DNA from: Catajapyx aquilonaris
Taxonomy: Eukaryota
Length of the DNA: 64,000 nucleotides
Direction: 5' to 3'
Assembly: GCA_000934665.2 (NCBI GenBank)
Contig: KZ538227.1
Coordinates: 1-64,000 of the forward strand
The notes below the pieces were generated by a model that was not told where the DNA came from, did no database searches, and worked only from the letters and a program-made list of their open reading frames with translations. The position numbers and the translations under genes are program-made. Below, in pieces: positions 33,224 through 64,000 of the stretch (its first letter is position 1; the number at the start of each line of letters is the position of its first letter).

Positions 33224-33407
33224 CCGGTTGTTTGGACACAGTTTAATGAGAAAATCTCTGTTTAGTGAATACCTATACGTATTAAGAGATACATTTTTGC
33301 ACTGATACAACCAGACCTTCCCAAATTATTGGAAATCATCGATTATGTTCGGGTGTTCACCATACCATTGCAGAGATTTTCTCCTTAATTTGATGTGAAA
33401 TAACCGG
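33224..33407. repeat. Degenerate inverted repeat (old MITE-like) between the two converging genes
   Basis: CCGGTTGTTTGGACACAGTTTAATGAGAAAATCTCTG vs CAGAGATTTTCTCCTTAATTTGATGTGAAATAACCGG. Confidence 0.5.
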
Positions 33408-33682
33408 TTCTAATTCTCCAAACAACCTAGTCAAAGGTGTTGCCTTAAAAAAATGGACGGAAAATAACCAGAAATGTTTGTTATTCATTGTTGTCAACCA
33501 CTTTTCTGGCTCTTTTCCGGCTGGTAAATATTTTCCCGGATTCTGTGCAACAGGCCGCCGAATTTAATTCCGCCGAGTTTCGTCACGGGACGTGTAGGGT
33601 AAGAGTATACTTATATAAATGCCACATGGTAAATTCTTTTTTTTATACTGCTCTTGGGCGGTAATTGAACGTAAGTAAATGA

Positions 33683-34270
33683 CTACTTGTGAGGAGATTG
33701 AGCTCCGATGATGACGTTATGATCCTCGTTGATATGCACCTTTTGCGGGGGCTTGGTGCGAGGAGGCTGCTGACCAGACGAAGAGGAGGAACTCCTGTTG
33801 CCCAAAAGGTAGGACAGGTCGCTGCTGATCTGGCTGAGTGTCCTGTCCGATGACTGGCTGTGTGTCTGGCTGACCGATGAGGAGGAGGAGGAGGATGGGA
33901 GGTGCTGGACGCGAGGTGGTATGGCATGGTGGAGGTGAGGTGGAAGTGGGATGGATGGGGCTGGAGGAGAAGGAGTGGACGCTGCGAATTCTGGTGGTGG
34001 TGACGGTATGGGGACATCTTCCTCCAGCACTCCGCCCATTGGTATGTAGGTGTCTTCCTCCACTGTTGGAGGACACACTGGTCTCTGGATCAGGCACTTG
34101 CCCCGAATGGGTCTCGGTCCCTCCGATTCTACTTTGGCCCCTTCTTCTTCCGCTTCTTCTTCAGCACCTTCTTTCATCTCCTTATGCTGGAATTTCCTTG
34201 GACTGCTGTTGTATTTCTCGAGAGTTACGGAGCTGAAGGGAGACGGCGGGTCTGGACCCATGCAAGGCTT
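33683..34270 (-). CDS. aGPCR last exon: Pro/Ser-rich cytoplasmic tail
   Basis: ORF 33683-34261; GTTTCAG acceptor; TAG stop at 33683-33685. Confidence 0.85.
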   Translation of the reverse strand, partial: KPCMGPDPPSPFSSVTLEKYNSSPRKFQHKEMKEGAEEEAEEEGAKVESEGPRPIRGKCLIQRPVCPPTVEEDTYIPMGGVLEEDVPIPSPPPEFAASTPSPPAPSIPLPPHLHHAIPPRVQHLPSSSSSSSVSQTHSQSSDRTLSQISSDLSYLLGNRSSSSSSGQQPPRTKPPQKVHINEDHNVIIGAQSPHK

Positions 34271-37200
34271 CTGAAACGGATGTCATGGCCAGTTCAAAGC
34301 ATGTGGTCACTATCAGTGTCACTTACTTCTTTAGTCCACTCTGATGTGTCGTCTTCGTCCTGGTCAAGACTGGAAGTGGCAGCTGCCATGGACTTGGACT
34401 CAGCGCTGCCTTGGATGCTGTGCACCAAAAGGGTCTCCTGAGTGCTTGGATTGGTGCTTATCACAAACGGAACCATGCTCTGCGGAGGACTCTTCTCTTG
34501 GTAAGGAGCAGGGTGGGAGTGGGGGTGGGGAGGATGCGAGTGGGAGTGAAGAAGGCGGTGTGATTCGCGAAAGTCTCTGTTGCTTTCTGTTGCCGAACCT
34601 TCCGTGTTGCCATAGCCTGTGGAATATGAGAAAATTTTAGTTACTCTTGATAATTGAGAATCCTGGGGCATTATTGAAAGCACTCACATTTGAGGCTGTT
34701 GAGCGGTTCTGGCTCGCATTCATCAGTCTTGATTATTCTCAGTCTGGAGGCCAAGCCCCTTGGGATTGGAGTCTCACTCTTCACGGTGTACAAAAGCAGA
34801 GTGATGACTCCCTGAGAGCAGAGACAGTAATCAGCAAACGTTTCGAACTGTGTCAGGTGTTTGAAATACTCACAAGTAAGGCACATGAAATGCAGAAAAG
34901 GTACTGCGACTTTTCAGAGGGAATGTTGACGTACAATATGCTGGAAGCCGTCATTATGAGGCAGCACGTGAAAATGGCAGCCGACCTGCGCACCAACCCA
35001 ACTCTGGGAATAAGATGTGCGATTAATTATTTGCTCTGGGAAAAATGTGCGAATTCTAACCTTTTTTGGACTAGCAGATTTTGGGCAGAAGCGTTCGACT
35101 CGTGAGCCATGGCCCTCAGCTTGGCCATTGTCAGCCAGTAAATGGTCAGGAAGAAGGTCAGCAGGATGCCGGCAGAGACCAGGAAGGACACGAAAAATCC
35201 CCGATTGTCCAGCAGCAACCACCAACCGGACAGCCTCCACCTCATGGTCTTGTGGGCAAAAGCAGTGGCCGCCAGTGGCATCAGAGGAAGTGCGGTCACT
35301 ATTGAAATGATAGCCAGCTGCTTCACGTGTCTGGTCCACGGAAATTGGATCACTTCATTGTACACCAAAAGTAACTGGCTGAACTGAGACGCCATCGCCA
35401 AAAGGACAAATGCCTCCAGAAACACGCACGAGTATGGATAAAAGTTCTGTGGGGAAAATGTACTAATTAGCCACATTATGACTAAAATTATCTGGTACTG
35501 TACCTTTGGTATGAGATTCTGACCAGCACAAAGAAAGAGGGTCATGGAGCCGATGATGGAGAAGCAAAACTGTATCTTGAGGTAGAAGAGATAGTGACGA
35601 TGCATCCTCCAATGGCAGAGAAGCACCGCAACCACCAAGAGAGTCATCAGGAGGCAGCTCATGCAGCCGATCAAAACAACCGTGTCGTTGTGCAAATCAG
35701 TCTCGTTCTCTACGGGCTAACAAAACACACCCATTATGTAACACTTGAGATAATCATACAAAAATATTTGCCAATACTGACTGGTACTGTATTGGTGACT
35801 TGCAAAAGCGCATATGTTCCTGGTCCCTGGCAGTTACATCTGGTGGCATTGAGCATGGCTGTGGGGACACAAGCAGCCAACCCCCATGTCGCTGCTCCGG
35901 ATGAGGTTCGGTTGGCCCTTCCACATGTCACTCTCCAGTTGCGTTCAGGGTACTGCTTCAGGTGCTTCAGGGTCAGAATGACCTCCTCTCCACCACCTGA
36001 ACCCAAGCTCCCATCTGCACCTCCTCTCCAGACACTCACCACGTGTGAGTTCACTTCATACATTACTTCCACATCCTTCCTGAAACAAGCACAGGGGTTT
36101 CTTCGTCAGACTTGTTTCCACAAGGCAACATACAACATATATTCAAAATAATTAAGTAATATTAATTAGACGCACCCAGTTTGACCCACGTATCTTTGGG
36201 GCATCATTTCATGTAGGCTTCGATACACGACGATCACGTAACTGGAGTTGTCTCTAAACGCGGCGATTCGGCTAGAAGCCAACCTCAGGTGGATTTCGTC
36301 TTGAAACCATGACGGATAGCTACTGGAAAATGCATGTTATAACGGTGCCCAATAACGCCCAATAAACATGACTTACATGCTATGGGTCCTGGATGGCGAC
36401 ATGATGTGCTCGTAAGTGACCATAAATCTGACGGTCTCCAACACAAGTGAGACAGAGTTGGTCCTGAAGGGCTTGTCGAAAGGTTGCGCAGCAGCGAAGG
36501 TCAACGAGAATTTTTCGATGCACCATTGCATATTTGGCAGTTGCTGTCGAAACAATCGCAAATAAATGCTGGGGCAAATTGGTTCATCCTCTCGTATCTT
36601 TACCTCTCTGTTACGAATTGAGTGGTTCTGGTTCAGGATGGCTCCCAGGGCACCAAAATAGTCGTACACTGAGTCGGCAAGCTCCTTCTGCATCTTCTTC
36701 TTCATCATGTAGCGGTACACCCTTCTAAACAGCTCCAAGACTGTCTCGCCTTCTCCAGGATACATCTGAACTCGGCCCCTCAGAAACTCATCCGATTGCT
36801 TCAACACCTTTGCCGGTGTGGTTGCCGCATAGCCCTCAGTTAGCTGCTCAAACTGCAAGGCAACATACGCCTTTTGCTCAACTGTCATAATCCAGCCAAC
36901 AACTTCAGGCAGTCTGTACCCACATATTTAGACGGCCCGATCATATTTAAAAATGTGTTGTGCTGCCTCATGTTGTTGGTAGAACTATACTTACATCGTT
37001 TCGGATGTCCTTAACCTCCGGGGACAAGCAATCAGACAGATCTGGCACGTCCCATCCGACAGTGTTTCCCGTCATGTACGTGCACTTCCTGGAAGCGATC
37101 CCCTTGTATGGCTCCGGGCAATGTATCCTGGCTAGCTGGTTGACCGCGGTCATGGGCCAGGTGATGTTCCAAGCCTCCTTCTGCAGGCAGGTCTTCACCT

Positions 37201-40200
37201 GAGACAAATCGGCCACTTTGACCCACAGCCACTGCCGTCCCGAGCCCATTTTTCCTCCAGCCTCGCACGTGTAGTTCGCCGAACCCTGTGCGTAGAAAAT
37301 CCCCTGGTGATTTATAGTCTTCGCCACAGCGAGGCGCCTACTGATTGCGCGCTTTTCGTAGGCGGGAAGTGGCGCCCGTTGGGTGGCCTTCGTCAACCAC
37401 TTGGGAGCCCCCTTGGTATTAAGTCCGGGGGAAGAAAACGGGGACATTGAACCGATTCCTGATACTTATACTGGCGTGACTAGGGCTTGGCCTCTATTAC
37501 GACCCCAAAGTTCATTATATGGTGTACGCACTAATTATGAGGAGAAACCGGCAGGAAAAGGGTTGCCGTGACCTACAGGTGTAAATCATCTGTCGGAATT
37601 GGAATAACCGTGACCAATGTTTGGGGGCAACTACTGCCCTGCTTAATTAGAAAATACTGCGCAGGTCGTCAGTTCAGAAAATGTTTACCCAGAAAGTTAT
37701 CTAAAAAGAAGCAACCTGTTGGAAGCCTGCAGTGAACAATCAATATCTTTCACACATAGCGATGGCATTTCCGAGTACAAACATTTTCAAGTATGGTCTC
37801 AAATAGTGTGATCTGTTACTACACTAAATGTGGCGTGTGAATGGGTACTCGCCTGAGCATTGATTATCTTGAGTATAGAGCCCATTGGATAGAGGTCCTC
37901 GATGATCTCATTATCGCCCATTTTTGTGTCCATGTTCTTCTTCCAGGTGTATCCGTATATCTCTGCCAGATGATCATTCGATGCCTTGCACGTCACATTC
38001 ACGCTGCCTCCCTGTCCATTCGAAAGAATATTCAGCATTATCCATGGGTCATTAATTTGAGTTGCATGTTCCAAGAGCAGCTATCCAATAATTTTCCTCT
38101 GAACTGCTTATTTGTTCTCGTCGCTTACATTGAAACAGCTATGTCAGTTTGAATAAGCCAACCGATCTCTAAATTACAGTGGATGGAATTTTCTTCCCAC
38201 TGCTAACTTAGCAGTACTAGTGTTGGCAGTGGTACTTCTAAGTTAGCAGTAACTAGCAGTGGGACGAAAATTCCACCCAGTAACTTTTCGATTGAAATAT
38301 CCCACTGGATGGTATGAAACGCCAATGATGGGCTACAAACAATGTTAAGGTATTCAAAAATATGAGTTCATGCAACCTATGAGATTTTTGACAACATCTA
38401 AAGCATCTCTCCACGGCAGTTTGCTAACTACTAATCAGACACCTGTTGTGGAAGCACCAATCAAGTTGAATGTTTCACTAGAAGATACCAGATGTTGCTG
38501 AATTTTTGCTTTCTTCCTGAAGCCAATTTCTCACATGGAAACACTAATATATAAACTCTTCATACTGTAATTAACCTTACCTTTGGCACCGTGGCCGACA
38601 AGGGCGTCAAGCAAACAGTGGGCAGCGACTGCACCTCCACATAGATGTCCCTGCACTGCAGCTGCAAGAAGTCGCTGACCTGGCAGACAAAGACCCCTTG
38701 ATCCGTCATAGTGGCCTTTGGCACCACCAGCACCTCCGATAACTGATCCTTACTGTTCTTCGGCAGCCTTATTTGCAGAATATCCCTGTCCAGCAACAAA
38801 ACAAAGGAGAACAAGCGATCAAAGCCTGACTCTCTTCCTCAGCAGGTTCCCTGTCTGGACCAAGCCGCTCAGATGGCGTCCACTTCCTCTCCCGTCCCAA
38901 ACTATCGATTTTCCCCACAGCCACTATACACCCGACCCTACCCAACCCTCCCATCCAACCCCCCAGCCCCATCCCCAAAAACCCACGTCCTTTTTCCCCG
39001 ACTGCTGCCTACGACGCGCAAGAATGTCATTGATCTGTTCCCGCCGCCAAATATGCCCTTACATGCCGGACATCCTTGTAGGGACAAAAAGGACATTGTC
39101 CGAGGCTCGCCGGACAGTAATCGTCTAGAACTTGTTGCGTTCCGTCAGTCCAACAAAACCTCAAAATTTTTGGGGGGAGACAAATCTACCCCTGTACATA
39201 AGTTGGGTCCTAACACATCTTAAGGTCCGAGTGTAATCGGACAGAACTTGTTGCGTTCCGACAATGGAGCCCATGGGACCATCCAAAATGTCGGGGTCTG
39301 CTCCATTTGGCACGGTATGCAACCCCCTAGAAAGGTGATGCCACTTCCCATTTCCAAGGGCTAATTGCATCGGTACGACACTCCTACCGTGAACACCGTC
39401 TTCCATTTGGAGAATATTGTCTCCCAGCAAGCAGCCAGGAGAGAGAGAGTGGTTTTCGCATGGGTTCAGAATATGGCGGACATTAGGCGCAGACGACCGC
39501 GATATTGCGAGGGGGTGGTTCTTTGACGGAACCAAATCAACGTTTAGCACGGCGTTCGGAAGCACCCAGAAACAGTGAAAAAAAGTATTTCACCCCACAG
39601 CAGAAAAGGCTGGAAAAATGGGGCCATAAAGTGCCTTGCATTAACCTAATCTCCACATTAGTGTTCACTAAGTTGAGCTTCCAGAGTAGAAAGTAGGGTT
39701 AGTTCCACAAAATAATCAGCGTCATCAGCTATATTTTGAAAATATTACTATACACCAGGGAGGCTTTTTGTATTCCATGTGAATTAATGAAGAACTGACT
39801 CATTGCATAACTTGTCAATATCAAAAACATAATACTGAACTGGAGGCTAAAAATTGCGGCGATTGATATAAGCTCGTTAACGTACAGGCAATTTACCTCA
39901 CTAGGTTATGATGGATCAAGTAAAAAAAACCGCGGCCCAACTTGTTTTCAGCAAAATTATTAGTCCAACCACATGAAAGACACGGGCGCTAATTACTGGC
40001 GGAAATGCCAAGCTCATATTCGGTGAAATTAAAGTACGCGTTCAAATTTCCATCCCGAACTATGACGTGGTATCATTTACGTACGTATGAGAAGTGATCA
40101 AAAATTTACGCAATAGTAGCTCACAGTAATTAAATCACTTTCACACATTAGCGCCCGATTAAATGTAAAACAAAACACAGATTCCACTTACAGTATACGC

Positions 40201-43200
40201 CATCTGCCTTTGAAGGCTTTAGATCAGCAATGATCTTGTTCCGAAGTATCCTAGAGTCGACAAATGTAATTAGGTAGAGTGGAGGTTACCCGTCTTACCT
40301 AAGACCTTTAGACTTGTCAATGGGCTTGCCATCTTTGAACCAGCGGAACTGAATGTAGTCGGACCCTGTGGCCACACAAGTCAGGGAAAATTCTTCGCCT
40401 TGCTTCAGAGGGAATTCGCGATTCACCTTCACACTCTGAAAAAGAGAACGCAACAAAGTTACATAGCCATTAACCTAAAGACTAAGGACCAGTTTTATCA
40501 AAGCAAATAAATAAAATCTCTAATAATTACTTATTACTAAAAATTTTGCCTAATTTGCTTTGGCTCTTATCTCCTGCAATTTTTCTTAAATGGGGTAAAC
40601 ACACTTTAGCGTTACAATTAGGCTCCTATCCTTATCCGACATTTTTCTCTGCCGAGAGTAGCAGAACAAATATCTGCCATGAAAACTAAAATATGACCGT
40701 AAAGATGACGAAAAAGTGTTCCTGCTTTTGCACAAGCTCAGCATCCAAGGTGGCGGATCAAGATAAGTTTCAATCTCTGACTTCTCCGCTTCCACCGCCT
40801 GCCTTCTTCAGATTTTCCGGCTTCTAATGCCCCTCTCCCCCCATAACACTTCTCACCCTCACAAATCAACACTATCGCCCATCACTACAGTATTATCCTG
40901 TAGATTAATATTCCACATACCAATTCATAATGCTATGTACAGTCACGTGTGTTAGGCATCAATCATACGTATATATGTAGGCAGATCGAAGTTTTAGCAT
41001 AATACTTGCCATATTTTTATAAACACAAATACCTCAATAATTTGTTACTAGAGCATATATGAAATACCTCTCTAAGCGTCTAGTTCAAATATCGGCCTTT
41101 ATGTGGCGTTGCAGTGCTCTTGCCCCAAAGGCAGGTATCCCAAATAGTTCCGGTGCAAGGCCACCAATGGCATTAACGCTCTGAAGTCTCTTCAATTACC
41201 GTGCAGCCCGAGGATGCAATTTCATCATCTATATACCCAAAATTGCATTTTTCGGCTGACCTTGTTACCATCAATGTGATTCATGTTGAGATTAATCCGG
41301 GCACATCTTGCGTAATAACGAAATCAAGGTAGTAGGAAACACGAGGCACAAAAACGCAGGCAGTTATGCAATATCGCTCTGTCGCTCCATAAATTAAAAA
41401 CATGCTTTTGGTAGTACAAAGCGTGAAATGAGAGAATAATTTGCATTAATATTAATCCAGCATTATTTTGCAGAATTTAATTCCCTGTGTATTATTTCCA
41501 CTGCGGTAAATCAATAAATAAAGCTACCACGATATCAGCGTTGCGCAATTATTTAGGCCAGAAGTTGGAGAGAGTTATGGTGAGTACAGAGAGGATAGGG
41601 TTTTGCCTATAACAACCTTATGTAATTTGGAAGCAGTCCCAAGTGATAGCACGAGCTTTTTGATTACATCTAGAGGGTTTCTGAATAAGAGTGGTTTAAT
41701 TTCCCATTATAATTTACAATATGTGCCAAAAGTAATGCAAAGTGCATAATATGTTCTGCAGGTATGGTCTGGAAGAAAATTGTTTTCTTGTGTTGTTGCT
41801 TGTTGGTTAGGCATATCCCTGAATCATACTTTAAACAAAAACTGAAAATAACCAATTCCCTTGCGCACCTTCCATCAAACACCCGTGTCTGCACAAGCTC
41901 CAAAAAATTGCCAGAATTCCCTCCTCACAACTGAAAAGGTCACTCACACTGGACAAACGGAAAAAAAACTCAATACATTTCCACCAAGCTGCCCTGCGCA
42001 CATCCCTCTGAATAGGCAGCAGTAACTTGAAAAACACCTACATAAAAAAGCAACTTAAGATGCTTTACTGCCTCGCTTTGCTGCGCTTAAAAAGAAGCAA
42101 AGACGCATAATATTCAAGGCCACTCCTCAGGTGGGCAAAATGCAATTAGAATATTGAAATTTAAGCACTGCCCTAACAATATGTCCAAGTCATTAAAAAG
42201 TCTGTCAAGGTGTTTCAGTTCAGCACTAGAGAGGAGTCTATTGTGTGCGAGATAAACACATTAAAAATTCTGCGCCAGTACTAAACTATAATGTAATGAG
42301 CAATTGGTATGTTACGAGCATATTTCACTGCTCGACTATTATTTTAACCCTTAATGTTTCTCATCCATTTATGAAGTAACGATATCATTCCTGCCTTAAC
42401 AGAGTTAGCAGGTTTGAATCAAGTCCCTGCTACTTCAGAACTGCCTCCTTTATTCCAGTGGGAGAGACTCGAGCACCGTTCCTCTTAGGTAAGATCAATA
42501 CGATACCGTTTAATCTCTTCCAAGTATCTCCGTTTTTCATCTGGTGGGAATAGCCCCAAACGGAAACTCCTCCTAAACTCCAATTATGTGCATAAATCAA
42601 GCAAAAGTTGCAACTAGCCTAACCGCACCTTCCTAATTCGCCATTGCACGTTTAGCCCTCCTAACAAAGTGACATACTCTTGAAAACCCAGGTACATGTA
42701 ATTACACCCTCATTAAGCCTGAAGCTCGGGAGTGACGTGGGTCTGTAACAGGTGTGTAACCGGAAGCTAGTGTTCTTGTGTACAAACCCTGTCATCCTAA
42801 CCTGCTATGGATCCCAAGAGCCTCTCTTGCCCTCCGGGTCGGCATAACACGCAGGCGCTAAATCCCACGTTGCCCTCGAATAAATCCTGTTTGAACCTAC
42901 AATAGCCTACTTCAACAACTTCCAACGAGTACACTCTTCTGTGTTGAAGTTGCTATTAATCCAGGCACATTCATGATTAGGGTATGCATAAAGCAGGTTA
43001 ATGATATGATCGAGAGCTTTATATAATTTGCGCCTCTATAAAGGAATGCTAACCACATTACGATACAGCATTGTGAAATACAGCTCGTGTAAAAAAAAAT
43101 ATGACACGTAACCGCGCGTAACACTGTGTTAACAAAAGCGGAGTTGCAAATAGCGAAGAATTAAATTATTGCAAATTACTATAGTCTTTCTGGGCTAACG

Positions 43201-46200
43201 GGGTTTTTCCCATATGAAGACACACATATGGCTCATTTTTTTCGTTTTTTTTCGTTTCAACCTAGCGAAAACACATACTCATAACATAATTATACTGCAA
43301 TTTTTTACGACTTGTCTACTAGCAATAAATGTAAACACTCCCTTGCATGCACCTCGATGAGAATATGTGCTCAAACATGTGTTGCATTCTCAAGCGCTGA
43401 ACTGAGTGGAATATAAGCCATTCAGAAATTCCTCACCTCAATATAGAGAGGCCTCTGAATGTCGAGTGTCATCTTGAGGCCCAAGGTGAAATTCCCCAGC
43501 TGCTTATGGTACTGCAGATCCGTGAAAGCCTTGGTCGAATTGTGCTCCTCCTTCTGGTCTCCAAAGAAGTGGTACATCACTTCCGACCCCTCCCTGTCAA
43601 ATTCACCAAACGAATACATCAGCCATGTCCAAAAATATGGAAAAATAAGACCTACCTGACTGACAAAATGGCAAAATGGTCGATGACATCCACCTCGTAG
43701 GAACGGTAGTACTCTTTAAGCTGCAATACACAAAGGCAATGGTGCAATTTGGCGTATGATCCTGTACCAGTGTAAAAGGCCCTGGGTAACAGAACCAACA
43801 AGCGCAGCCTCGGCGTGTCCACAAACATCTCAGAGGCCCCTTATCTGCGGCCAATCCCCTGGCGCCAATCCCATTTGCAGCTTTTACTAATGAATTAACG
43901 GCCGCAAAGTTAACGTTACGACCCCACCGCCCTGGCTAAATCCCTTCTCTTGACGCAACCCATGGCTGCATCAGACATTCTCCGGCCGTCATCCTTCCTT
44001 CCGCACACCTATTGCCAGCAACCGCACACGCCTTGTTACGACGCCCTAGTTATTACGTGACGTCGTTTTCTGTGCATAATGCAGTCATTTCGTAGGAAGA
44101 GGAAAATGCGAAATCTGGGCAGGAAAACTAGGCCTAATATTGATTTAGCCTGTGTGATATTGACCTTGATAGTACTTTTAGGGAACATTGTGAGTGACAA
44201 ATGATGAGGAGGAAGTATGCCCATTCAGGAATCTGAGAGGTCTATTGGAAAAATTTGGGGGTCTTGGTTATGCAAGGGACGTGGGAGGTGTGATGCAATC
44301 GATCTGATGAACCAGATGGCACAAAACGGAATTGCATGCTGAGACCCCCTCGTGTGTATGTGTGAGTGCGTGTGGAATCCATGTCCAGCCTTGTACTGCA
44401 CTCTCCAATAAAAACTGTGTAATCAACGTGGAATACTTTCATTTTCTAAGGAGGTTGCTCCTTATGCAGCAAGTTCCAACAATGAAACCTTTCATTAGTT
44501 CATCGTACAAGTTGTCAAATCCTATAGGAAATTCCAACATCGGAAATTCATATAGCCTACACAGTATGTAATATTCCGGAAAACAGTCGGAAGAAGAGCG
44601 TTCAACTTGAATGCTCAAAATTACCAACCCCGCAACAACAGCAGGAAAAATCAAAGCTGATCAAAACTCTCGCGGTATCATCATAAACCGAGACTATCAT
44701 TCAAATAGGCCATATCAAAAACCCAAACCTGACTGAATGAACTGATGTGGAATATCTATGGTATATTATTTTGTGGAATTATAGTGGATGTCATATACTG
44801 TAATTAGGTAATGCAGTGTGTGCCATTTTTTCACTATAGGCTAATTATGCTTATGCAGTTACCTTTTGCACCTATTTTTTTTTAGATGTAATCCGAAATA
44901 TTACAGTATACTTAATACTGCACATTAAAAACGACTAACCACTGCTGGCATTTAAGTTGGAACATACTTACATATTGCAATTAATTTTACTTCCTGTTTC
45001 ATCACGACTCTTCGTTCCTATGAAAATGTGATGGTGTTAATGATGTTATTACCTCACACCACCGCACCGGCCTAACAATGGACATCAGATTATCTAATTC
45101 CGCTGGGACTGATGGATCCCATATAATTGGGGACGTAGCTAACTCAGAGAACACAATTTCAGACTAATTTTAATCTGAATCAGAACTTCGCACATTTCAT
45201 TGCCTAATGAACCCCGATTTCATGAGATCCAATAATCCGCCTCAGAGGGAACTGCTAATCGTCATGTCCAAATTGCTCTACAATTCTATTTAGGAGGATA
45301 TGTGACGAGCTTGTATGCATTATTATAATATTTTATGACGCAGTTTACTACGTATATCATCGTATGTGCATATTTACCTATAATTTTAAATCAATTTACA
45401 TCACTTATGCGACGAGTAATATCGAAATGAACATTTAGCACCATATTAACGTCAACTCCCGCAATGGCAAACCTAGCACAAATTTCATTGGACTTTTTCA
45501 CTTTTTCACATCAAAGTCCCTAGCGAAACTAATCCTTGCCCTTAGGAGACTCAAGCTTAGAGAGAGAAGCTCTGTTGTTCATTATCCCAACCCAACCAGT
45601 GCAGTTGTCGAGTGTATAGATGACCCATGAGAAAAATACGCGTCGGGTACAAGAGAGAAAATCAATTTGGTTTATCATCTGGAGAGAAAGGATCAGCCTG
45701 AGTGTAATTAAACGCCACGAGGCCATCATTATTTAAATAAGGTGTAAAAGCTGCGCAAAATGTCGCGCTTGAAAGATATGGTCGGATCGTGGCCGTCAAA
45801 CGCCCCGAGCTCATTAATTACGGCCAGAAAAGTCGTCAATGGAGGCATTTAATGACACTCTCCACCGTCTATGCCAGCCGTGTCACCGACTACTAACTTT
45901 CTAGAAGACGCCTATGAAACAGGCCTGCTCGTTCCCCAGATTAGTTCACACATATAGTTATTATGAGAGATATTCATTTAAGCAGACGAGAATATTGGTT
46001 GTAAACTCCGCCCAGCCTGCAATATGGTGTTTAAAAACCAAGCACATTAACCATTTATCTGCCCCCCGTGAATTTAAGTGGAGAACGGCTGGGGGCTATA
46101 GGGTTCGCCTAATGTGGACAGTCCTGTGCCTTTACCCTTCAGGCGGAAGATGGCAGTGTGACATCACGCACATGGCTATAAAAAATACACGGCTTGCCCA

Positions 46201-49200: not shown

Positions 49201-52200
49201 GGAAATATTTTGCACAATTCCTGAACAGTGATGGTGCAAATATTTCTCTTATCCTCCTGAGACCCCTGGTACAGTATACTGTACCTTTGTTTTTTCCAGC
49301 ACCTTCTGACTAACTCAAGCGCGTAAAAAAACAAAAACAAAGGTACAGTATACTGTACTCCGGGTCTCAGGAGAAGCTATGGCGTACACAAAACGTGTGG
49401 AAGTGAAGCACAATACCTTTTGAGAAATGAGATGCAAAACTGGAACTGTGGTGTTGGAAGCATTCGGTGGGATTGGAGGCGGCAGAGGCGACGGCTGGAA
49501 CTCGTGGGTTGGTTCCATCGATGCGTTGATCACCTTGATAAAACCCTCATAGCGCACTTTATGGGCTGAAAAACAAAAAAGAGGGGGGCATTCCCATTGT
49601 TACTTTGCATTTTCGATTTCGGCAAAAGCCACTATTCACACCGCTAATATTACAGTCTCTAATAATGGATGAATCGGGCGCATCAAAAGAATCGAAGCTA
49701 GATCATCTATCCAATATAGATTTAGTGGCCGACCAATAAAATTCCACAGCCTGAAAAAATGGGCCGTTAACCGCATACCTAGAGCTGCAGAATGGCGGCA
49801 GTTGCAGGGTGGCCCAGTCGACTCCAGAGTCTTGCGAGGACAAGCTGCAAAGACATGTGGGAAGTAATTAGTAAGCCAGAACATCCTCCGGATCACGTGG
49901 ATCGTTCCAGAACACAATGTAAAATGCAAAATCATGCTAATCTATGCAGCATGCATGATGGTGGCGAGTCCCCCCCTGCGATGAGCAAAAGACTATTTGG
50001 CCTGAGCGAAATGAAAATTCGATGAAGCGCTGATGGCAACCCTAATTGGTTCGGCTGCTATGCCAGAAAAAAAAAGAGTGGGGGTATGCAATAACCAGCG
50101 TCACAAGTTAAATAATAACAGCCGAATATTGCCGCAAGTGTAGCATCCATTATTCGCAACCCTAAAGGCCAAGCTGTAAACAAGTTTTGCTCAATATTCA
50201 TATATGTGTCCAGATAATACTGTATTTATACGAAAGTTACAAATGCAGGAGTGATAAATGCTGGTTGGTCACCGAAGAATCACGGTGCATCAGCGAAATG
50301 GACTATGTGAGGGATTTGAAACGCAAATCTCCGGAGACGTGCATTTCTTGAAGCATAAAAGACCAAGTGGGAGAGAATAGCTGGGACGTAGTGGGCTGGC
50401 AACGAAAAAAAAAGCCAAGGAGTTAGAGAAGGGGAAGAAGAAGAAGAAAAAAAGAGAAGCTAGGAACGGCAGGAGGATGCTTGTGGAATTCCATTTCCAG
50501 GAAGGGAAACAAGGGAATTCCTGTCCCGACCTCAGGCCGCCGATCGAAATCTAGGCAGGAATTTGGCCCGCCTGTGACGTCATGGGCTCAAAACCCCTTC
50601 TCCTTCGGGACTAACATATAGGCCTGTGAGCAGCGACCGTGTCGTGTCGATGTGCTGCAGTGTTTACTGACGGATTTCAGCCGTGCACCGAGTGTGCTTT
50701 CGGCTCAAGTGCCTTCACGGATCCCTTTCCGATCCTAGACATTCCGGACCAATTACCTCTGCCGCTGATTGAACTCGGAAGCACCTGTTTGGAGACGGTC
50801 TTTTGTGTTCAGGGATTTGGGCGAGGGCACGTTGTTTCAAGTATTTTGTTGGTATACTGCACAGTGCGTCGGAGGCACGCTGTTGTCAAGGAAGGGCCTC
50901 GTTATTGGTAAAGACACCCGTAAAATAGGAGGCTATATGCGGTGGATATTAGCTTCCTCAGGACTCACCTAAATATCGTAAACTACATGTATTCCTACAA
51001 CCAATATTAAGTGCACAAAGTGGTCTCAAACAAAAACATGGATTCTGATTTGCATATATCATCAGAAGCAACAGTTCCGCTTACAACCTTCAGCGTTAAT
51101 CCTTGCAATATTGACCAGCCAGGCAACAGCTTGTGTCGGTCAGTAGCATGCATACTAAAATAGCAAAAATTCTGCACACTGGACATTTTATGCTGTCTGT
51201 CCTAACCATGGTCCTAATTTTTAGACCAGACTAGCGAACATGTCGGAAATCGTGACACATCTTACGCTTGGACTATGCCGGATTCCTGACGGCTGACCAT
51301 AACAGCAAAAATCCCCAAAACAACCCTCCGGACATTAAGCAGCCGAATTTCCCAACACCCATCACACGCATGACGACAGGAAAAGTCCGACGAGCAAGCT
51401 AATTAATATGCAAATGAGTGGCGCCATACAAAAGTCGTAACTCGCGAAATTCCCGCTCATTTCAGCCCCATTCATGCAAGTCGCTTCCACTTGCAGCTCC
51501 AATCGTTGGGGCCTGCTGGGGGAACAGTCATGAGAGGATAGGCTATGGGGATAGGGTAGGAGGGGGGAAAAACCGGTCCAATCTCACGTTTTACATGCAT
51601 AAACCCGGGTCTAATCTGAGGACCGACCGGGCATGGTCTCGTTATTACTGCTTCCCAATGGGACACTTTTCAATTTGCGATCCGGCTTCTACAGCCCCTC
51701 AATACGGCGCATGGCCCTCAAGTGCATAACTGTTCACCTGTATGCTACTCAGGTGGAGTGTTTGTGCTTTCCAACTTTTGGGACAAGTGGTGCCTGGTCC
51801 ATGAAAGGGCCACATTGTTTGCGCCTGTTGGCATGCCTGTTATTGTTGGACTATACAGAGGCACCAGCATCCCCGGACATGAATCAACATATGTCTTACA
51901 GTACAGTGTGCTGGTAGCAAAGTGTGGTAAGGCTGCTTCAATATTGCGGTACATCTGCATCTTTGGTTTCAGCGCAGTTTCGCGAGTGGGTTTGTGTGCG
52001 CGGCGGTTTGGTTTTTGTTTGCCCGGGGTGTGTGCTCATCCGTTGGAATTATTTCTCCCGGGATGAACGGGACACTGGATCGGGGTGAAACCGGATTAAG
52101 CTCACCTTTGATGTGGCTCTCTTCTATTTCGCATGTTGGGCCCTTGTAACCTGGTGGGCAACTGCACCTAAGAGCCTTTTCTCCAACGTACCTGTTGGAT

Positions 52201-58200: not shown

Positions 58201-61200
58201 CCTTTCTACTCTTGCAATGTCCAAAATGGCGCAGTAACAATGTCAATATGGCTGTCCACCATAATGATATAAAAACTCTCTGCACCAATATGATACCACG
58301 AAACTTACTTCATTATATAAATTTGGTTTTATATTTAATTGAACCATGAATCCAAATGACAACACCAGTAATTAACTACAATAAATGGCACCATACAAAT
58401 ATTTTAAATTGCATAAATGTTATTTTGCTAATATTTGACGCGCCAATATTTGGCAAATACCCCACACACATATCCGCTCTAGCAGCTAACCTAACCAACA
58501 TAAATATTCTATTTAAAGTTAGATATTTTCAGAATATAGGGAGTATTGCAATTGAACAGTCACCTTTATTTCTCAAAATTTTGGTGTAGTTTAACTCACT
58601 GATGATGATTATTAATCAGTTACTATTTAAATATTACTTTTAGAGGTTAAAAACTAGTTGTTGATATTCGGTTGAGTGAAACCTCTTTAAGCCCTCAATT
58701 TTGGACCAGTTTATGCACTATTTGTTCTGGTACAGTACTTTTCTAAAACGCCTTTCATGCTTCGCGATACACTCATAAAAGAACAGGCGCATATTTACTT
58801 CGCCAACAGAATACAAACAATACATAGCCCAATTACAGCTTTGAAACGTTTTTTTACTGTTTTTATCTCTTCAGCAATAATTACCGGATTCATTATTTCA
58901 TAAAAGAGGGTTATTAAGCCTTGTTTATGGCGTACATGCATCTCATTTTGGTAGTGGAAATATACAGTGAGACTAATCAGTCAGTCTCTGCAGAGAGCGG
59001 GTTGAATGATAGCCTAATTAAGAGGCTTGTACGGCATAAGGCTCAGACACGATATAATACACGTCAGTAATTCACAGGGTTTCTGGAGAAGCGAGCTTTC
59101 TCCTCGGTACCAGCAATAAATTAATTCCCGCAGAAGCACAGACTACATACAGAAATTCTGATTAGAGCCAAATTAGCTACTAGAAGCCTTCAAGCTAAGA
59201 CGCCGATCGATGGCCTTGAACTGTAAATAATAAACACGATGAAAGATTACGTCCGTGATTATGGATGGGTAAAAATTTCCACTACTTCCAAAAATTTGCA
59301 TTCAATTCTAGTTGGAACATCATGGGGGGAAGCTGAAAAGAAATCCAGTAAATCTCATCGTAATGCACATCCAATTCGGCTTTTCGAAGTGTGGTCAAGG
59401 GGTTAAGACGCCATCTGTGATTTAAGCACGTAAAAAGTTTTTTTTTCGCCGCCTTAAGGGGTTCCTTTAAACACGGAGGCCTTTACACAAGCGTCAGGAG
59501 AAATGTGCTTCGAGTACATATTTCAAACCAAGGAGCGCGGGAAAAAAATGCAATAAATCCGGGAAGGAAGGAATAAAGAAAGCTAAAGTTTGGTATGTTC
59601 TGGCTGGGTGCGTTCTGACAGCCGAAGAACCCAAAATCTGGAATTGAATTTTGCGCAGGCCACTTTTCAACTCCGCCGTTTTCTTGGTCCTCTTCTTCGC
59701 CTGCCTCGTAAATCAAACACCAAGCCACTGCAAATCTTGCTTGCTCCGGAAAAAAATGCGGAGGAAAAAAATTGTAGCAACTCTCAGATAAAAAAATATT
59801 TTACTTGCCGATTAACCTATTCATAAAAAAGCAATAACTGGCTTGAGACAAATGTTTTTACCGACAGTTGTTTCTCCTGCTGGGAGATATACGTGGCTTA
59901 TATATGATAGAAACACTAAAAACTGTCGGCCTTCTAACATTAATTAAATATGCCCCACATTTTTTACTTTTAATATCTTTAAGAAATGCCTACGTAATGA
60001 CAAACTGGCACATAAATTCATTAGCACTTATTTGAATGCTTTAGTCCATCACACTATTTCATTATTTAGAAATTGGATATCAGTCTAGAGCCATCGTCAG
60101 TGTCGGAAGTGTCCCCGTCGTATAGGAGCAAAAGAATAACACGTTCGTCTCCAATTCCATTTCGGAATCCTAACTGCCACAATGTGTCTCAACAACTGCT
60201 TCGAGCCCGCGGCGAAATAAAACGAATCTGCGGGGATTGGCTTTCTTAAAAGAATAAAGAAGAAAAGAGAAGCTGGCCTATACACTCGCTCAAAAACTCA
60301 TCAGAAAATGTGAATCGCTCTTGCACTTGGCAAAATCCTTTGCCATCACGTCTTATGTTAATCCGGGAGCTAGATTTAAAATGGTAAAATGCGGCATAAA
60401 AAAGAATAAAAGCTGTTTTCGTGTTACGAGCCAGAAATTCAAAGACTGTAAAATGTACATTAAGGAAGTTTAAGACTTGCATACTTTCAGAAACAATGTC
60501 ATTTGAATTCTACTTCTCTGATGAAAAGAGCACGGTTACATGCATCTAAATGCCATTAGTGTTATTGCATGTACGATTCATTACAGATTTATTACCTAGA
60601 TTTTGAATGTCAGTACAGTACGGAATCTGTAGGTCTACTAATCAACTTAAAATGTACATTTTCAAAGTATTCCATGCTACTGAGGGAAAAACTGTATGCA
60701 AACTACAGCAACGATACGGTACGTAAGAACTAATATTGAATATTTCTTATTGTAGAGAATGCATCATAGTATCATGCATTACTCTCTCGCATGCATCTAA
60801 ACAAAAATTCACAAAATGAAATTCCCGAACAAGTCTCAAACAAGGAGGTAAATTTTTCATAATGCAAATTCATAAAAAAATACTGCATCGTACTTAACTT
60901 ACAAGATACCTATACGTTATGCGAGACTGTCCCTAATTTGCTTTCAGATACTGTACAGCCCGCCCTTAGTCAAAGGAAACGTGCACGAACTTCACTGACA
61001 TGTAACATTTGCTAATAATCGTGCTAATTTGCTAATGGGACAGCTACGTACAAGTAACAACATGAATCTCTCGGGGGGGGGGGGTGTAAAGTGCCTGCAG
61101 CATATTATGCAGAAGACTAATGTACATTTATGGAAGATGATGCTATAAGCTTACAGCAAATCTGAAGGCCTCTGTAATATAATCTTCCTCTCTGTTAGAC

Positions 61201-63923
61201 CTTGCATTAGACTATTAGAGGTTCGCAATGTCTGCATATAGCTATATTGCAATGTGGTCCTCCAGCTTGCACTCAAATTGCGGCTGTTGACAAACTCTCC
61301 TTTCAGTTTCACTATTGCAAGTACTCCGTAGGCTAATCAAAGCTGTGGTGCAACGTGCATTCAGTAAAGCAACACTACTTCATGTTTCAGCTATATAATT
61401 ACGCAATTCGAGAGGCTCTTGTCAACACCATCTATATGTAAGAAGCTGTTTACGTGTTTTCCTTACTTGTTGATGCCCATATAATCAGCATGAGGTATAA
61501 TTTCGCAATGCATGTAGTTTATTACTCGTCAGGTACCAGCAACAGCATTTCAAAACCACACCATCAATGCTAACGAAAAACATGTTATTTTTAGCTACAA
61601 TCAGCTATATTTCCCCCGCAATTTCTCGGCATGCTGTCAACAGCACAATAATGTACACTGCATTACTCAATAAGCCACCCAAATTGCTTAGTTTCTAACG
61701 ACTCTCAGAATTCTAGTCTGTTTACATCTGAAATTCCCTCATGGGAGCAACTTTTCCTCGATGAAATTGCAGCTATTGACATCTCCATTGCATTTATCGT
61801 TATGGAGGTATTCAGCAAGCTTAATGATCAACAGGTACAATCATGGATCATTGTCAAAAAAAAGACTTGTATTTGCCGTATCGCGTGTAATGAATTCGCT
61901 TCATTGGCCATTGGGGCTGGTAGTCTATAATTTTCATCCGAATTACTTGGGTCCCACTTGCCATAAACATGGACCCATAGCAACAGCCTGATTCTCTCTC
62001 AGGCGTGATAAAATCATCTGTCTCCAGACCACCTTCCAACTTATTCAACCCACTCGTCATCAATCAAGTCCTAATTGCTATTCAGGGAACCTGCTTTGTA
62101 GGCTTCCAATGTCACAAGAAGCCGAATGGAGCGGCGTATCGTCCTGATTAACTTATCTGTTGGCAAATGTACTTATGTGAAATTTACAAAGAAAAAAAAT
62201 AGCAATAAGACGAAAGAGGAGTGACATTGTGGTGGCAAGAGTGGAAGCCTGGATGCTTTATCAGCGTCGGATTTGTGCGAATGTCAGCGAGGGATCTGGT
62301 GGTTTAAGATGATATCAAGTCTCAGGAGTGTCACGCTACAAAGAAAACTTATTTTGGCGAGCGTGTTCCTCGTGAATGTAGGCCGGTGGAGTGTTTGAGG
62401 AAGTTGCAAAGCGAGAAGGTTTCTTGCTCGTATATGGAAATGCCTGATAGATCAGATCAGACATTTATATCCCCTCTGGTTAGAGCGGATTCTTTTACTA
62501 ATTATTTTGCCATTTAGTGATATCGTGCAATCCCATTTGTAATAAATCAGCATTAGAGCGTACAGTACAATGTCCGAAAGTATATACGCTCACTTCTTGC
62601 GCATGAAGCATACCGTCAGCCCAATGTTTGCCACAAAGTGAATTTGAAGTTTTGAAAATTATCGAAATTGATGCACCTCATTCATGTTTCAGAAATGAAA
62701 TAATTGCTCCTCTTTGTTGCTTTTATACTCCTATCACGACTCTCATTATTACAGAAGTGACATGCTTCTGTGCCAGTTTAAAGCAACGTCCCTCACTGTG
62801 TACATCTCATTAAGTGTTTCAAAACACTGGCCTCTACATTTTTGTAAATGTCCGGCAATACGCGTCAGTCACAACGCTCTCTAAACAAAGAGGCGCGCTG
62901 GAGTTTTCGCTACCCTGGTTTGCTGAAGGAAAATGAAGCCAGCTAAATGGCAGTGAAAGAGGAAATTAGCCAACTAATGCGGAGTGTAGTCCCAGATTTT
63001 AAAAGTGTTTGCCCGGCATTTCCATTACAGCTGGCGAAAAATTCCGAGAGAAAAAGGGAGCGACGGAGCTATAGTGCAGCTGGGGATGGAACACCGAATG
63101 CGTATACTCACATGCAGGTCCCTCCGTTCTTGCACTTGGTGATGTTTTTCTCCGGATTACAACTCGGCCCGTATTGGCACTTCTCACCCAAAAAGTTCTC
63201 CAGGCAGGAACATTCGTAACGCCTGTGAGTGAACAAGTTACTGGGTTCATCACTCTACGTCCAGGATTGGAAGAGAGAGAAAAACTTGATGCAAATGCAC
63301 TGTAATATCAGTTTCCGATATGGACATCAATCACGCTCTCTGTAACAACGGTACCAAATTTTTTAAAATCATTTTGCACCACCTGTTTCAAAATTGATCC
63401 TAGTCCCAGAAATTGCACAGATTGTGAGTCCATGTTTTGTAATAACATTTACATATAATTAAAAGCGATCTGTTGAAGATACTGTAGAATTGGTTTTAAT
63501 AGTCCCAAGAGAAATGCGAGTATACTGATCGTATGATCCCATAATGTTATGCTTTCAATTCTACAACATGCGTTGTACACTATACAGAAACTGATATTGA
63601 TGCAGCATCGCAAAGGAGACAAATACTCACGAGAAATCTGAGCTGGCAAAGCAGTGTCCAGCTGCGGAGCATCCGATAACGCTGCAGTTGGTCAGACTGT
63701 GATGGTGGTAAGTGTCCACATCGACTATCTGGTAGGTGATGTTGAATCCGTACACGTCCAGGAAGGAATATGAGGAGCGGAAGTGGTTCTCCAGGCCCCT
63801 CGCTTCGAACTTCAGAAGCATATATGGATTCGGGGATGCCATATAGGCCAGTATGTTGTACTGCTCCGGTATCTTCAACTCCTTCTCTCCCATTCCGGTG
63901 TGATAATCCGCCCATTCCTTCAT
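33683..63923 (-). CDS. Adhesion GPCR (CUB-EGF-EGF-SEA-Ig-Ig-HormR-GAIN/GPS-7TM), 5'-partial, ~1436 aa visible
   Basis: 21 phase-consistent exons (5'->3'): 63923-63631, 63222-63112, 52191-52106, 49844-49779, 49565-49417, 43720-43656, 43593-43437, 40435-40299, 38785-38581, 38011-37853, 37285-36995, 36852-36604, 36543-36377, 36322-36176, 36079-35782, 35716-35504, 35446-35061, 35003-34874, 34811-34688, 34616-34327, 34270-33683 (4311 nt). Motifs recognised: EGF Cys spacing, Ig C...W...C, HormR (W..T......CP....G..SR.C.....W..PD.S.C), GPS C-W-C-CxC and seven hydrophobic helices. The signal peptide lies outside the window. Confidence 0.9.
34327..34616 (-). CDS. aGPCR exon: cytoplasmic tail
   Basis: ORF 34294-34683; TTCCACAG acceptor, GAA|GTAAGT donor. 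Confidence 0.85.
34688..34811 (-). CDS. aGPCR exon: end of TM7 and start of C-tail
   Basis: GVITLLLYTVKSE...; CTCTCAG acceptor, T|GTGAGT donor. Confidence 0.88.
34874..35003 (-). CDS. aGPCR exon: TM6 and start of TM7
   Basis: VGLVRRSAAIFTCCLIMTASSILYVNIPSEKSQYLFCISCALL; CTT|GTGAGT donor. Confidence 0.9.
35061..35446 (-). CDS. aGPCR exon: TM3-TM5
   Basis: Part of ORF 35027-35695; TTTTCCCCACAG acceptor, AG|GTTAGA donor. Confidence 0.9.
35504..35716 (-). CDS. aGPCR exon: TM1-TM2
   Basis: VVLIGCMSCLLMTLLVVAVLL and LKIQFCFSIIGSMTLFLCA hydrophobic helices. Confidence 0.9.
35782..36079 (-). CDS. aGPCR exon: GAIN B plus GPS (VNSHVVS...LTLKH...C...W...C...TRCNCQGPGTYALL)
   Basis: ORF 35734-36072; GPS cysteine/tryptophan pattern. 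Confidence 0.92.
36176..36322 (-). CDS. aGPCR exon: GAIN subdomain B (YVIVVYRSLHEMMP)
   Basis: TTTTCCAG acceptor, GG|GTGCGT donor; resembles the GAIN VxxxYxxLxxxL motif. Confidence 0.88.
36377..36543 (-). CDS. aGPCR exon: GAIN
   Basis: TTTCGACAG acceptor, AT|GTAAGT donor. Confidence 0.85.
36604..36852 (-). CDS. aGPCR exon: GAIN subdomain A helices
   Basis: Part of ORF 36373-36888; TTGCAG acceptor, GAG|GTAAAG donor. Confidence 0.88.
36995..37285 (-). CDS. aGPCR exon: end of Ig2 plus hormone-receptor (HormR) domain
   Basis: GSANYTC...WNITWPMTAVNQLARIHCPEPYKGIASRKC...WDVPDLSDC; GAT|GTAAGT donor. Confidence 0.93.
37853..38011 (-). CDS. aGPCR exon: Ig domain 2 (VNVTC...YTWKK...GSILKIINAQ), ending at a GC donor
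   Basis: ORF 37799-38074; donor CAG|GCGAGT. Confidence 0.9.
38175..38282. mobile_element. Short foldback/MITE-like element in an aGPCR intron
   Basis: GGAATTTTCTTCCCACTGCTA ... TAGCAGTGGGACGAAAATTCC inverted repeat, TA at both ends, and a nested ACTGCTAACTTAG/CTAAGTTAGCAGT pair. Confidence 0.6.
38581..38785 (-). CDS. aGPCR exon: Ig domain 1 C-half (DQGVFVCQV)
   Basis: ORF 38560-38814; DxGxFxC motif; AAG|GTAAGG donor. Confidence 0.93.
40299..40435 (-). CDS. aGPCR exon: Ig domain 1 N-half (GEEFSLTCVATGSDYIQFRWFKDGKPI)
   Basis: I-set Ig motif LTC...WFKDG; AG|GTAAGA donor. Confidence 0.93.
43437..43593 (-). CDS. aGPCR exon: SEA-like C-half (EGSEVMYHFF...QLGNFTL)
   Basis: ORF 43422-43619; GAG|GTGAGG donor. 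Confidence 0.85.
43656..43720 (-). CDS. aGPCR exon: SEA-like (LKEYYRSYEVDVIDHFAILSVR)
   Basis: TATTGCAG acceptor, CAG|GTAGGT donor. Confidence 0.8.
49254..49373. repeat. 41-bp inverted repeat (hairpin/MITE remnant) with a 16-bp palindrome in each arm
   Basis: CTCCTGAGACCCCTGGTACAGTATACTGTACCTTTGTTTTT ... AAAAACAAAGGTACAGTATACTGTACTCCGGGTCTCAGGAG (3 mismatches). Confidence 0.75.
49417..49565 (-). CDS. aGPCR exon: start of SEA-like domain with Pro-rich insert
   Basis: TTTTTGTTTTTCAG acceptor, AAG|GTATTG donor; phase 1->0 bridges the flanking exons. Confidence 0.8.
49779..49844 (-). CDS. aGPCR small symmetric Cys exon (CPRKTLESTGPPCNCRHSAAL)
   Basis: TCTTTGCAG acceptor, TAG|GTATGC donor, phase 1-1, 66 nt. 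Confidence 0.6.
   Translation of the reverse strand, partial: LVLARLWSRLGHPATAAILQL
52106..52191 (-). CDS. aGPCR exon: EGF2 C-half (LRCSCPPGYKGPTCE)
   Basis: EGF signature CxCxxGYxGxxC; AAG|GTGAGC donor. Confidence 0.92.
63112..63222 (-). CDS. aGPCR exon: EGF1 end / EGF2 start (RYECSCLENFLGEKCQYGPSCNPEKNITKCKNGGTC)
   Basis: CACTCACAG acceptor, AT|GTGAGT donor; EGF Cys pattern. Confidence 0.92.
63631..63923 (-). CDS. aGPCR exon: CUB-like C-half (YMLLKFEA...YGFNITY) plus start of EGF-like 1
   Basis: ORF 63627-63938; TTTCAG acceptor, TC|GTGAGT donor; GFNITY is a CUB-terminal type motif. Confidence 0.85.
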
Positions 63924-64000
63924 CTGAAACATGTACAAAAAAAACCTATAGAAAATCTGGATAAGTCCTGTTTATGTCTTTTAATATTGTCACACTGATC

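Follow-up and report, generated by a model that had tools for sequence, protein, structure and literature searches.

Among vertebrate adhesion G-protein-coupled receptors (GPCRs), ADGRF5 carries a SEA domain and then Ig domains before its GAIN and seven-transmembrane (7TM) domains, and ADGRG6 runs from an N-terminal CUB domain to SEA, HormR and GAIN, with a pentraxin domain between CUB and SEA. Here we describe a minus-strand gene of Catajapyx aquilonaris (GenBank assembly GCA_000934665.2), almost all of which lies within positions 1-64000 of contig C407 (KZ538227.1), the 64,000-nucleotide stretch analysed here and referred to as the window. Its product is almost certainly a GAIN-7TM receptor of a CUB-EGF-EGF-SEA-Ig-Ig family, and on the best reading this family is an old subfamily of protostome adhesion GPCRs, with a layout undescribed in the literature searched. 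A preliminary description of the window had proposed an uncharacterised invertebrate family, and the orthologues recovered from insects, chelicerates and molluscs, together with the undescribed layout, support that proposal. Beyond it, the family proved to be widespread (Drosophila, molluscs), its GPS is not of the cleavable type, and the signature residues of the arthropod 7TM are mostly lost.

The available sections of a 2026 review (PMC13197933) name five fly adhesion GPCRs: Remoulade, Flamingo, Cirl, Mayo and Ketchup. They assign cleavage to the motif CxCxHL|T, the tethered agonist to TxFxxLM, and activation to W6.53 with G6.50/G7.50, and they do not make the cleavage motif obligatory for the class.

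Domain architecture

The encoded protein has the layout signal peptide-CUB-EGF-EGF-Cys linker-SEA-Ig-Ig-HormR-GAIN-7TM-long tail. Its features, all on the minus strand and numbered in amino acids (aa) of the complete protein, are the following.

63924..64000: intron 1, final part; first coding exon outside the window (contig 65529-65224, aa 1-102)
63631..63923: exon 1, CUB second half and EGF1 start, aa 103-199; orthologue CUB fold, single genome match
63112..63222: exon 2, EGF1 end and EGF2 start, aa 200-236; splice model
52106..52191: exon 3, EGF2 end, aa 237-265; Pfam EGF_Teneurin E 3.3e-5, contig joint to 49844
49779..49844: exon 4, cysteine-rich linker, aa 266-287; acceptor in contig joint, top exon-scan candidate
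49417..49565: exon 5, SEA start and proline-rich insert, aa 288-337; splice model
43656..43720: exon 6, SEA, aa 338-358; top-scoring of 482 splicings on the SEA profile, not seen in RNA contigs
43437..43593: exon 7, SEA end, aa 359-411; SEA profile, orthologue segment fold-matches MUC16 SEA
40299..40435: exon 8, Ig1, aa 412-456; Pfam I-set E 6.6e-6
38581..38785: exon 9, Ig1 end and Ig2 start, aa 457-525; contig joint
37853..38011: exon 10, Ig2, GC donor, aa 526-578; contigs and splice model
36995..37285: exon 11, Ig2 end and HormR, aa 579-675; Pfam HRM E 2.1e-6, above cut-off; PDB latrophilin-1 and BAI3 HormR
36852-36604, 36543-36377, 36319-36176: exons 12-14, GAIN, aa 676-861; contig joints, orthologue fold
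35782..36079: exon 15, GAIN end, GPS with G-P-G instead of H-L-T, Stachel-like last strand, aa 862-961
35716-35504, 35446-35061, 35003-34874, 34811-34688: exons 16-19, TM1-TM7 and helix 8, aa 962-1245; joints, seven hydrophobic segments, orthologue fold
34616-34327, 34270-33683: exons 20-21, low-complexity tail and stop, aa 1246-1537; conserved helical motif at ~aa 1485-1500
32600..33682: 3' untranslated region, >1 kb; one contig, 32600-34270, is gapless; AATAAA at 32570 and 32445

Pfam scans of single exons of the window gene detected EGF, Ig and HRM and gave no SEA, GAIN, GPS or 7tm_2 match. The predicted folds are those of two orthologues with which the window's protein aligns end to end: a Cimex ectodomain of 729 aa (predicted local distance difference test score (pLDDT) 90.0, predicted template-modelling score 0.80) and a Schistocerca Ig-to-tail model (pLDDT 77.5) with seven helices and helix 8. 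The Cimex CUB matches that of TSG-6 (Z 13.6, root-mean-square deviation (rmsd) 2.1, 109 aligned) and its SEA that of MUC16 (Z 11.9, rmsd 2.7, 98 aligned); the same model also fold-matches Ig domains and the BAI3 HormR-GAIN. The Schistocerca HormR-GAIN superposes on BAI3 (Z 23.6, rmsd 3.6, 300 aligned), above the GAIN domains of GPR110 and Gpr126 (Z 20.1 and 19.6), and its 7TM on ADGRL3 (Z 25.2, rmsd 2.4, 233 aligned). Foldseek on the ectodomain model returned only Ig-type chains, SEA and CUB surfacing only in a wide search, and an alignment-free complex prediction of the Cimex CUB-EGF-EGF against Ig-Ig-HormR-GAIN scored 0.00 twice, which is no evidence either way.

At the sequence level, a profile of 60 family members matched ADGRL3 in the PDB in one stretch, from HormR through the 7TM into the tail (E 1.8e-48), and the GAIN-7TM of ADGRG6/GPR126 at E 1.7e-19, and the window's own TM1-5 was nearest to 7tm_2 clusters (0.90). 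GAIN stands directly before the 7TM, the 7TM has a class-B2 fold and the ectodomain is long and modular, as in adhesion GPCRs (class B2); the gene belongs to this known class, as a subfamily-level variant that appears not to have been described. All the domains named in the preliminary description, from CUB to 7TM, were recovered by Pfam or in the orthologue folds, SEA by fold only. Thrombospondin repeats, lectin, olfactomedin, cadherin/LamG and leucine-rich repeats gave no Pfam match in any scanned member. Other domains account for the whole ectodomain, with no lectin domain among them, and the predicted model has no space for thrombospondin repeats. SEA self-cleavage was rejected as a family trait, the Gly-Ser at the usual turn occurring only in the window's protein (1 of 45 aligned rows). 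The proline-rich insert in this SEA (49417-49565) is absent from nine aligned orthologues.

Gene model and transcription

Within the window the gene runs from 63923 to 33683 in 21 exons, which join in frame into 1435 aa with a single stop at the end, and all of which have AG acceptors and GT donors, one donor being GC. The additional 5' exon, 1.3 kb outside the window, supplies a hydrophobic leader plus the initial half of CUB (Pfam CUB E 8.8e-4) and extends the open reading frame to 1537 aa; by inspection, a signal peptide is probable in aa 1-102.

Splicing evidence came from a single public run of unrecorded kind, the contigs of which nevertheless skip GT-AG introns. These contigs skip precisely 10 of the 20 window introns; the remaining 10, which are not among the contig joints listed, rest on splice signals, frame and homology. 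Contig joints also fixed two boundaries (donor 35782, acceptor 36319) and brought in exon 49844-49779, and no contig among those listed spans the EGF exons to the 7TM. Exon 43720-43656 was picked by a profile of the orthologues' SEA region, against which it gave the best of 482 candidate splicings (51.0 bits, against at most 40.2 bits for the other 481). A model of 19 exons was replaced on these grounds, since the joints and the SEA profile added two exons and shifted two boundaries. The corrected model scores better against the orthologues compared, rising for Anabrus from 684 to 719 bits, with an end-to-end alignment at 32% identity across 1460 columns. That alignment is stronger evidence for the gene than the crude chance, 1e-24, that 21 segments of such lengths would all be open.

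The count of 21 in-frame exons over 30 kb in the preliminary description is borne out, because a spliced contig and the SEA profile each added an exon to the 19; its ~320-aa tail measures ~325 aa, and the extension that it anticipated beyond 64000 is the 5' exon with leader and half CUB. Of the junctions, which it had left for RNA to confirm, half are seen in spliced contigs and half are not. The gene is real and is transcribed and spliced at least in part. When the HormR exon and the CUB exon were each searched against the 286-Mb genome, the one match in either case was the receptor gene itself, which is single-copy in C. aquilonaris.

Distribution of the family

A word-based homologue search with TM1-5 found nothing among 2175 candidates. 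An exhaustive search with the same segment gave 57 proteins, and two alignment searches gave 105 and 239 proteins, among 8000 scored candidates each. Of the 329 proteins stored, isoforms and near-copies included, 130 reach a length of 1100 aa or more and can be aligned with the model in CUB as well as in the 7TM. Named members fall in eight insect orders (Orthoptera, Phasmida, Ephemeroptera, Hemiptera, Hymenoptera, Coleoptera, Lepidoptera and Diptera); chelicerate members (Limulus, Stegodyphus) are partial, and mollusc members (Mya, Haliotis) are full-length, with ectodomains plainly co-linear with the arthropod ones. No named crustacean relative was listed in the homologue searches of 8000 candidates each. 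Most source names are "uncharacterized", and the others are BAI1, ADGRB1/B3, ADGRG4, CELSR2-like and unrelated labels. The Apis member LOC410154 is labelled "C-type lectin 2" in the available part of a honeybee single-nucleotide polymorphism panel (PMC11942514), and its protein has no C-type lectin match.

Orthologues in Drosophila mauritiana, D. simulans and D. sechellia are 1945-1948 aa long, with 98.6-98.9% identity to the mauritiana protein (XP_033170328.1). In the mauritiana orthologue, GAIN and both the second inner and the second outer loop contain long inserts of low-complexity sequence, and older D. simulans and D. sechellia annotations divide the locus into three or more genes. In Lepidoptera the second outer loop is nearly absent and a cysteine lies near the top of TM3. 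No D. melanogaster protein was returned by name in the homologue searches (8000 candidates each) or in cluster look-ups; a D. melanogaster orthologue is likely, and would be a sixth fly adhesion GPCR. A putative candidate for it is CG31714, a fly gene whose product carries EGF, Ig and hormone-receptor domains. The available parts of three papers give CG31714 as "unknown" under signal transduction (PMC2826315), include it in a GPCR list (PMC5473139) and report its enrichment in two groups of clock neurons (PMC5325595).

Loss of the cleavage site and of 7TM signature residues

Residues were compared across an alignment of 45 rows, made up of the model, 39 named arthropods, three unnamed proteins counted as arthropod (n = 43 arthropod rows) and two molluscs. 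The cleavage motif CxCxHL|T occurs in none of the 45, Limulus being gapped there. Position +1 is Gly in 40 of the 43 arthropod rows and in both molluscs, and Thr or Ser in one of 43. At their aligned columns, W6.53, W3.46, P5.42, H2.50, C3.29 and C45.50 are absent from all 43 arthropod rows (with five gaps at 45.50), and E3.50 and G6.50 occur in one row each; W6.53 and G6.50 are also absent in both molluscs. The TM3 cysteine position is mostly Tyr or Phe (29/43) and that of the second extracellular loop (ECL2) mostly Trp (35/43). A Cys lies within three columns of 3.29 in six rows, mostly Lepidoptera, and near 45.50 in one. Canonical paralogues from the same genome keep W6.53, C3.29 and G6.50 in seven of seven, and H2.50 in five of seven.

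Of the class-B2 signature residues, most are gone from the arthropod 7TM, and it is because of this loss that Pfam 7tm_2 misses insect members: the cut-off was reached by two of 17 members in one scan, both of them chelicerates, and by none of nine insects in another, and the D. mauritiana protein gave no 7tm_2, GPS or GAIN Pfam match at E 0.5.

Place among adhesion GPCRs

A profile search of the same genome gave 22 canonical GPS and 58 7tm_2 matches, none of them on the receptor's contig, and the genome carries a separate Cirl-like gene and a Flamingo-like gene (contig C3097), labelled by inspection. A tree of GPS and 7TM combined 20 rows of the family with 15 paralogues from C. aquilonaris, several of them partial exon chains, with vertebrate ADGR sequences outside its scope. 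It places the 18 arthropod members on one side of a branch with 100/100 support and a stem length of 1.8 changes per column, with the window's protein sister to the insects, a position that suggests a pancrustacean other than an insect; Danaus has the longest branch. Molluscs join the arthropods at 74/13 only and the deep forks are unsettled, so that naming a sister subfamily from the 7TM tree was rejected. The best tree does not group the family with the Cirl-like gene, and a forced grouping is not rejected (p = 0.245, approximately unbiased test). PDB sequence matches favour ADGRL3 and ADGRD1, and ADGRF chains appear neither in the 49 PDB matches to the Haliotis member nor in the top 60 of the family profile.

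Proposed mechanism and alternatives

On balance we favour an uncleaved protostome subfamily with a ligand-binding tip and, in arthropods, an atypical output. The first element stands most firmly: judged by established adhesion-GPCR biochemistry, the family is very probably not self-cleaved, and the receptor would stay in one piece at the GPS because this lacks H-L-T/S. Against 11 orthologues, molluscs included, the window's protein has identities of 34-40% in CUB, 38-59% in the EGFs, 13-39% in the 7TM and 4-17% in the tail. CUB-EGF-EGF is the best conserved part of the protein and for that reason the putative ligand tip, which may bind a conserved cell-surface or matrix ligand. The SEA-Ig-Ig-HormR-GAIN segment would keep this tip off the membrane and relay binding or force. 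The arthropod 7TM would no longer use the Stachel-W6.53-G6.50 switch. Heterotrimeric G proteins may carry little or none of its output, most of which would pass through a partner of the conserved tail helix. This helix is a predicted one of ~14 residues, present in 34 of 45 rows of an otherwise unconserved tail. An atypical arthropod output, suggested by analogy with the uncleavable, Rac1-linked Remoulade, we hold to be evenly balanced. Eleven of the 45 rows, both chelicerates included, finish in a class I PDZ-binding-like motif, and the window protein does not.

A bolder form can be advanced only tentatively, at somewhat under even confidence. It posits an unrecognised subfamily that dates back to the arthropod-mollusc split, that includes a sixth D. 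melanogaster receptor and that in arthropods would have become an uncleaved, G-protein-independent "pseudo-GPCR", its disulfide replaced by aromatics, its switch decayed, its tail helix signalling and its tip held fixed.

Several points weigh against the favoured reading. The residue numbering rests on a low-identity alignment, the EGF identities are raised by cysteines, and the tail motif is missing in both chelicerates and both molluscs. The aromatic at +3 (Phe or Tyr, 39/43), Leu at +6 (23/43), W45.51 (42/43) and G7.50 (39/43) are retained, which leaves a Stachel-like strand and some of its pocket in place. In Haliotis, the member still has H2.50, C3.29, E3.50 and C45.50, though not W6.53, and scores 84 bits on 7tm_2, from which the family would have begun as a fairly ordinary 7TM. 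Uncleavable receptors (G5, D1) still signal via the Stachel, according to the available sections of PMC13197933.

The alternative that survives best is an ordinary G-protein-coupled receptor that is uncleaved and activated by the last GAIN strand without dissociation, other residues having replaced W6.53 and the disulfide. We regard it as a substantial possibility, if a doubtful one. The retained Stachel-like core with W45.51, P4.53 and G7.50, the predicted clean 7TM fold with helix 8, the precedent of G5 and D1 (in the same sections of PMC13197933) and the near-canonical mollusc 7TM all speak for it, but W6.53 is found in no arthropod row and neither mollusc, the H2.50/E3.50 polar pair and the TM3-ECL2 cysteines are gone in arthropods, and the stem branch is long.

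It is unlikely that this protostome family corresponds to vertebrate ADGRF (F5/GPR116 type) or to ADGRG6 and so forms no separate subfamily. Domain order is held in common with the vertebrate layouts, and by language-model features the Drosophila orthologue is nearest, among named clusters, to ADGRF5/F3 (0.88), a lead only. The PDB matches, led by ADGRL3 and ADGRD1, point away from ADGRF, and by fold the GAIN domains of GPR110 and Gpr126 score below that of BAI3; in 10 proteins scanned with Pfam, neither ADGRF3_N nor Ig_ADGRF3 matched at E 0.5, and pentraxin is absent.

Automatic names such as "BAI1-like" and "ADGRB3" suggest instead a fast-evolving latrophilin or BAI offshoot, which we consider improbable. 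ADGRL3 and BAI3 are indeed the top PDB matches, and the forced grouping with the Cirl-like gene survives its test; yet the PDB matches are biased toward these receptors, because its HormR-GAIN structures come mostly from L and B receptors, the lectin, olfactomedin and thrombospondin domains occur in no scanned member, and the genome has Cirl-like and Flamingo-like genes of its own.

Two genes, an upstream secreted CUB-EGF protein and a shorter receptor, as introns of 10.9 and 5.7 kb bridged by no listed contig, the split Drosophila annotations and many short CUB-only records might suggest, are highly improbable: the 10.9-kb intron interrupts EGF2, orthologues in insects and molluscs are full-length single chains, and a second signal peptide before SEA or Ig1 is absent, which disposes of the separate distal gene that the preliminary description had named as a possible refutation.

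Prior description and significance

The CUB-EGF-EGF-SEA-Ig-Ig-HormR-GAIN layout had no description in the literature searched, most subscription papers lying outside its reach, nor in the available parts of PMC12716839, PMC10084454, PMC6341585, PMC2246102 and PMC6408891. In its available part, PMC2246102 places CUB and I-set domains among amphioxus receptors and does not give the order of this layout. A genome-wide survey of Apolygus (PMC8660763) reports three B2 receptors, and the available main text does not mention the orthologue KAF6206427.1. The family seems to be absent from published receptor lists because its cleavage site and most switch residues are lost; surveys that use 7tm_2/GPS profiles or known fly receptors miss the whole lineage. 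Flies are a leading model for in vivo work on adhesion GPCRs, and a sixth receptor, shared with molluscs, would change the fly inventory of five. The family also forms a natural series for the study of receptors without cleavage or the Stachel switch, with most 7TM signature residues in the mollusc, fewer in chelicerates and almost none in insects.

Other features of the locus and genome

The intron after exon 10 (37852) is GC-AG. A 41-nt inverted repeat in an intron (49254-49373) resembles a small mobile element, and an intronic short repeat at ~38226-38279 has high depth and many loose ends in the public run. A plus-strand gene at ~16999-28712 encodes a transcription factor of the Myt1/ST18 type, whose three C2HC zinc fingers score over the Pfam cut-off, and runs convergently towards the receptor gene.

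Elsewhere in the genome, the 22 GPS matches include tandem arrays of canonical adhesion GPCRs on contigs C609, C771, C1063 and C541 (L007-L024), with five, four, four and two matches respectively; these are a lineage-specific expansion, and the five copies sampled group at 93/99. At C3244:8500-18499 (L057) lies a tandem pair of adhesion-GPCR-like genes with a Thr/Pro-rich stalk and, by inspection, a pentraxin- or LamG-like stretch. Its GPS is likewise without H-L-T and its 7TM divergent, and the pair is possibly a second uncleaved, overlooked family.

Comparison with known systems

Each single domain of the receptor is already familiar in adhesion GPCRs, which limits its novelty; the likely sixth fly receptor and the stepwise decay of the activation motifs add to it. 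Like ADGRF5/GPR116 (and ADGRF1/F3), the family has SEA and Ig domains ahead of GAIN-7TM; unlike ADGRF5 it adds CUB-EGF-EGF in front, lacks H-L-T and has a long tail with its own motif, and its 7TM shows no special closeness to ADGRF. With ADGRG6/GPR126 it shares an N-terminal CUB, SEA, HormR and GAIN, but EGF-EGF and a Cys linker stand where ADGRG6 has pentraxin, there are two extra Ig domains, the GPS is non-cleavable, and the predicted ectodomain is not superposable as a whole on Gpr126 (rmsd 25.7).

ADGRL3/latrophilin and Drosophila Cirl have the same HormR-GAIN-7TM core and give the best sequence and fold match, whereas the family has no lectin, olfactomedin, cleavage triad or W6.53. The ADGRB receptors (BAI1-3) share the HormR-GAIN fold (Z 23.6 to BAI3) and are the source of the family's automatic names, but the family has no thrombospondin repeats and wholly different distal domains; the B2 and B3 GAIN domains were crystallised uncleaved (available sections of PMC13197933). 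From ADGRC/Flamingo the family differs in having no cadherin repeats or LamG. Drosophila Remoulade/CG15744 (ADGRA type), whose irregular GPS is thought not to self-cleave and which is linked to Rac1 signalling (same sections of PMC13197933), has leucine-rich repeats where the family has CUB-EGF-EGF-SEA and, unlike it, appears in surveys and is picked up as family 2; like the family, it is an invertebrate adhesion GPCR with an irregular GPS, Ig and HormR.

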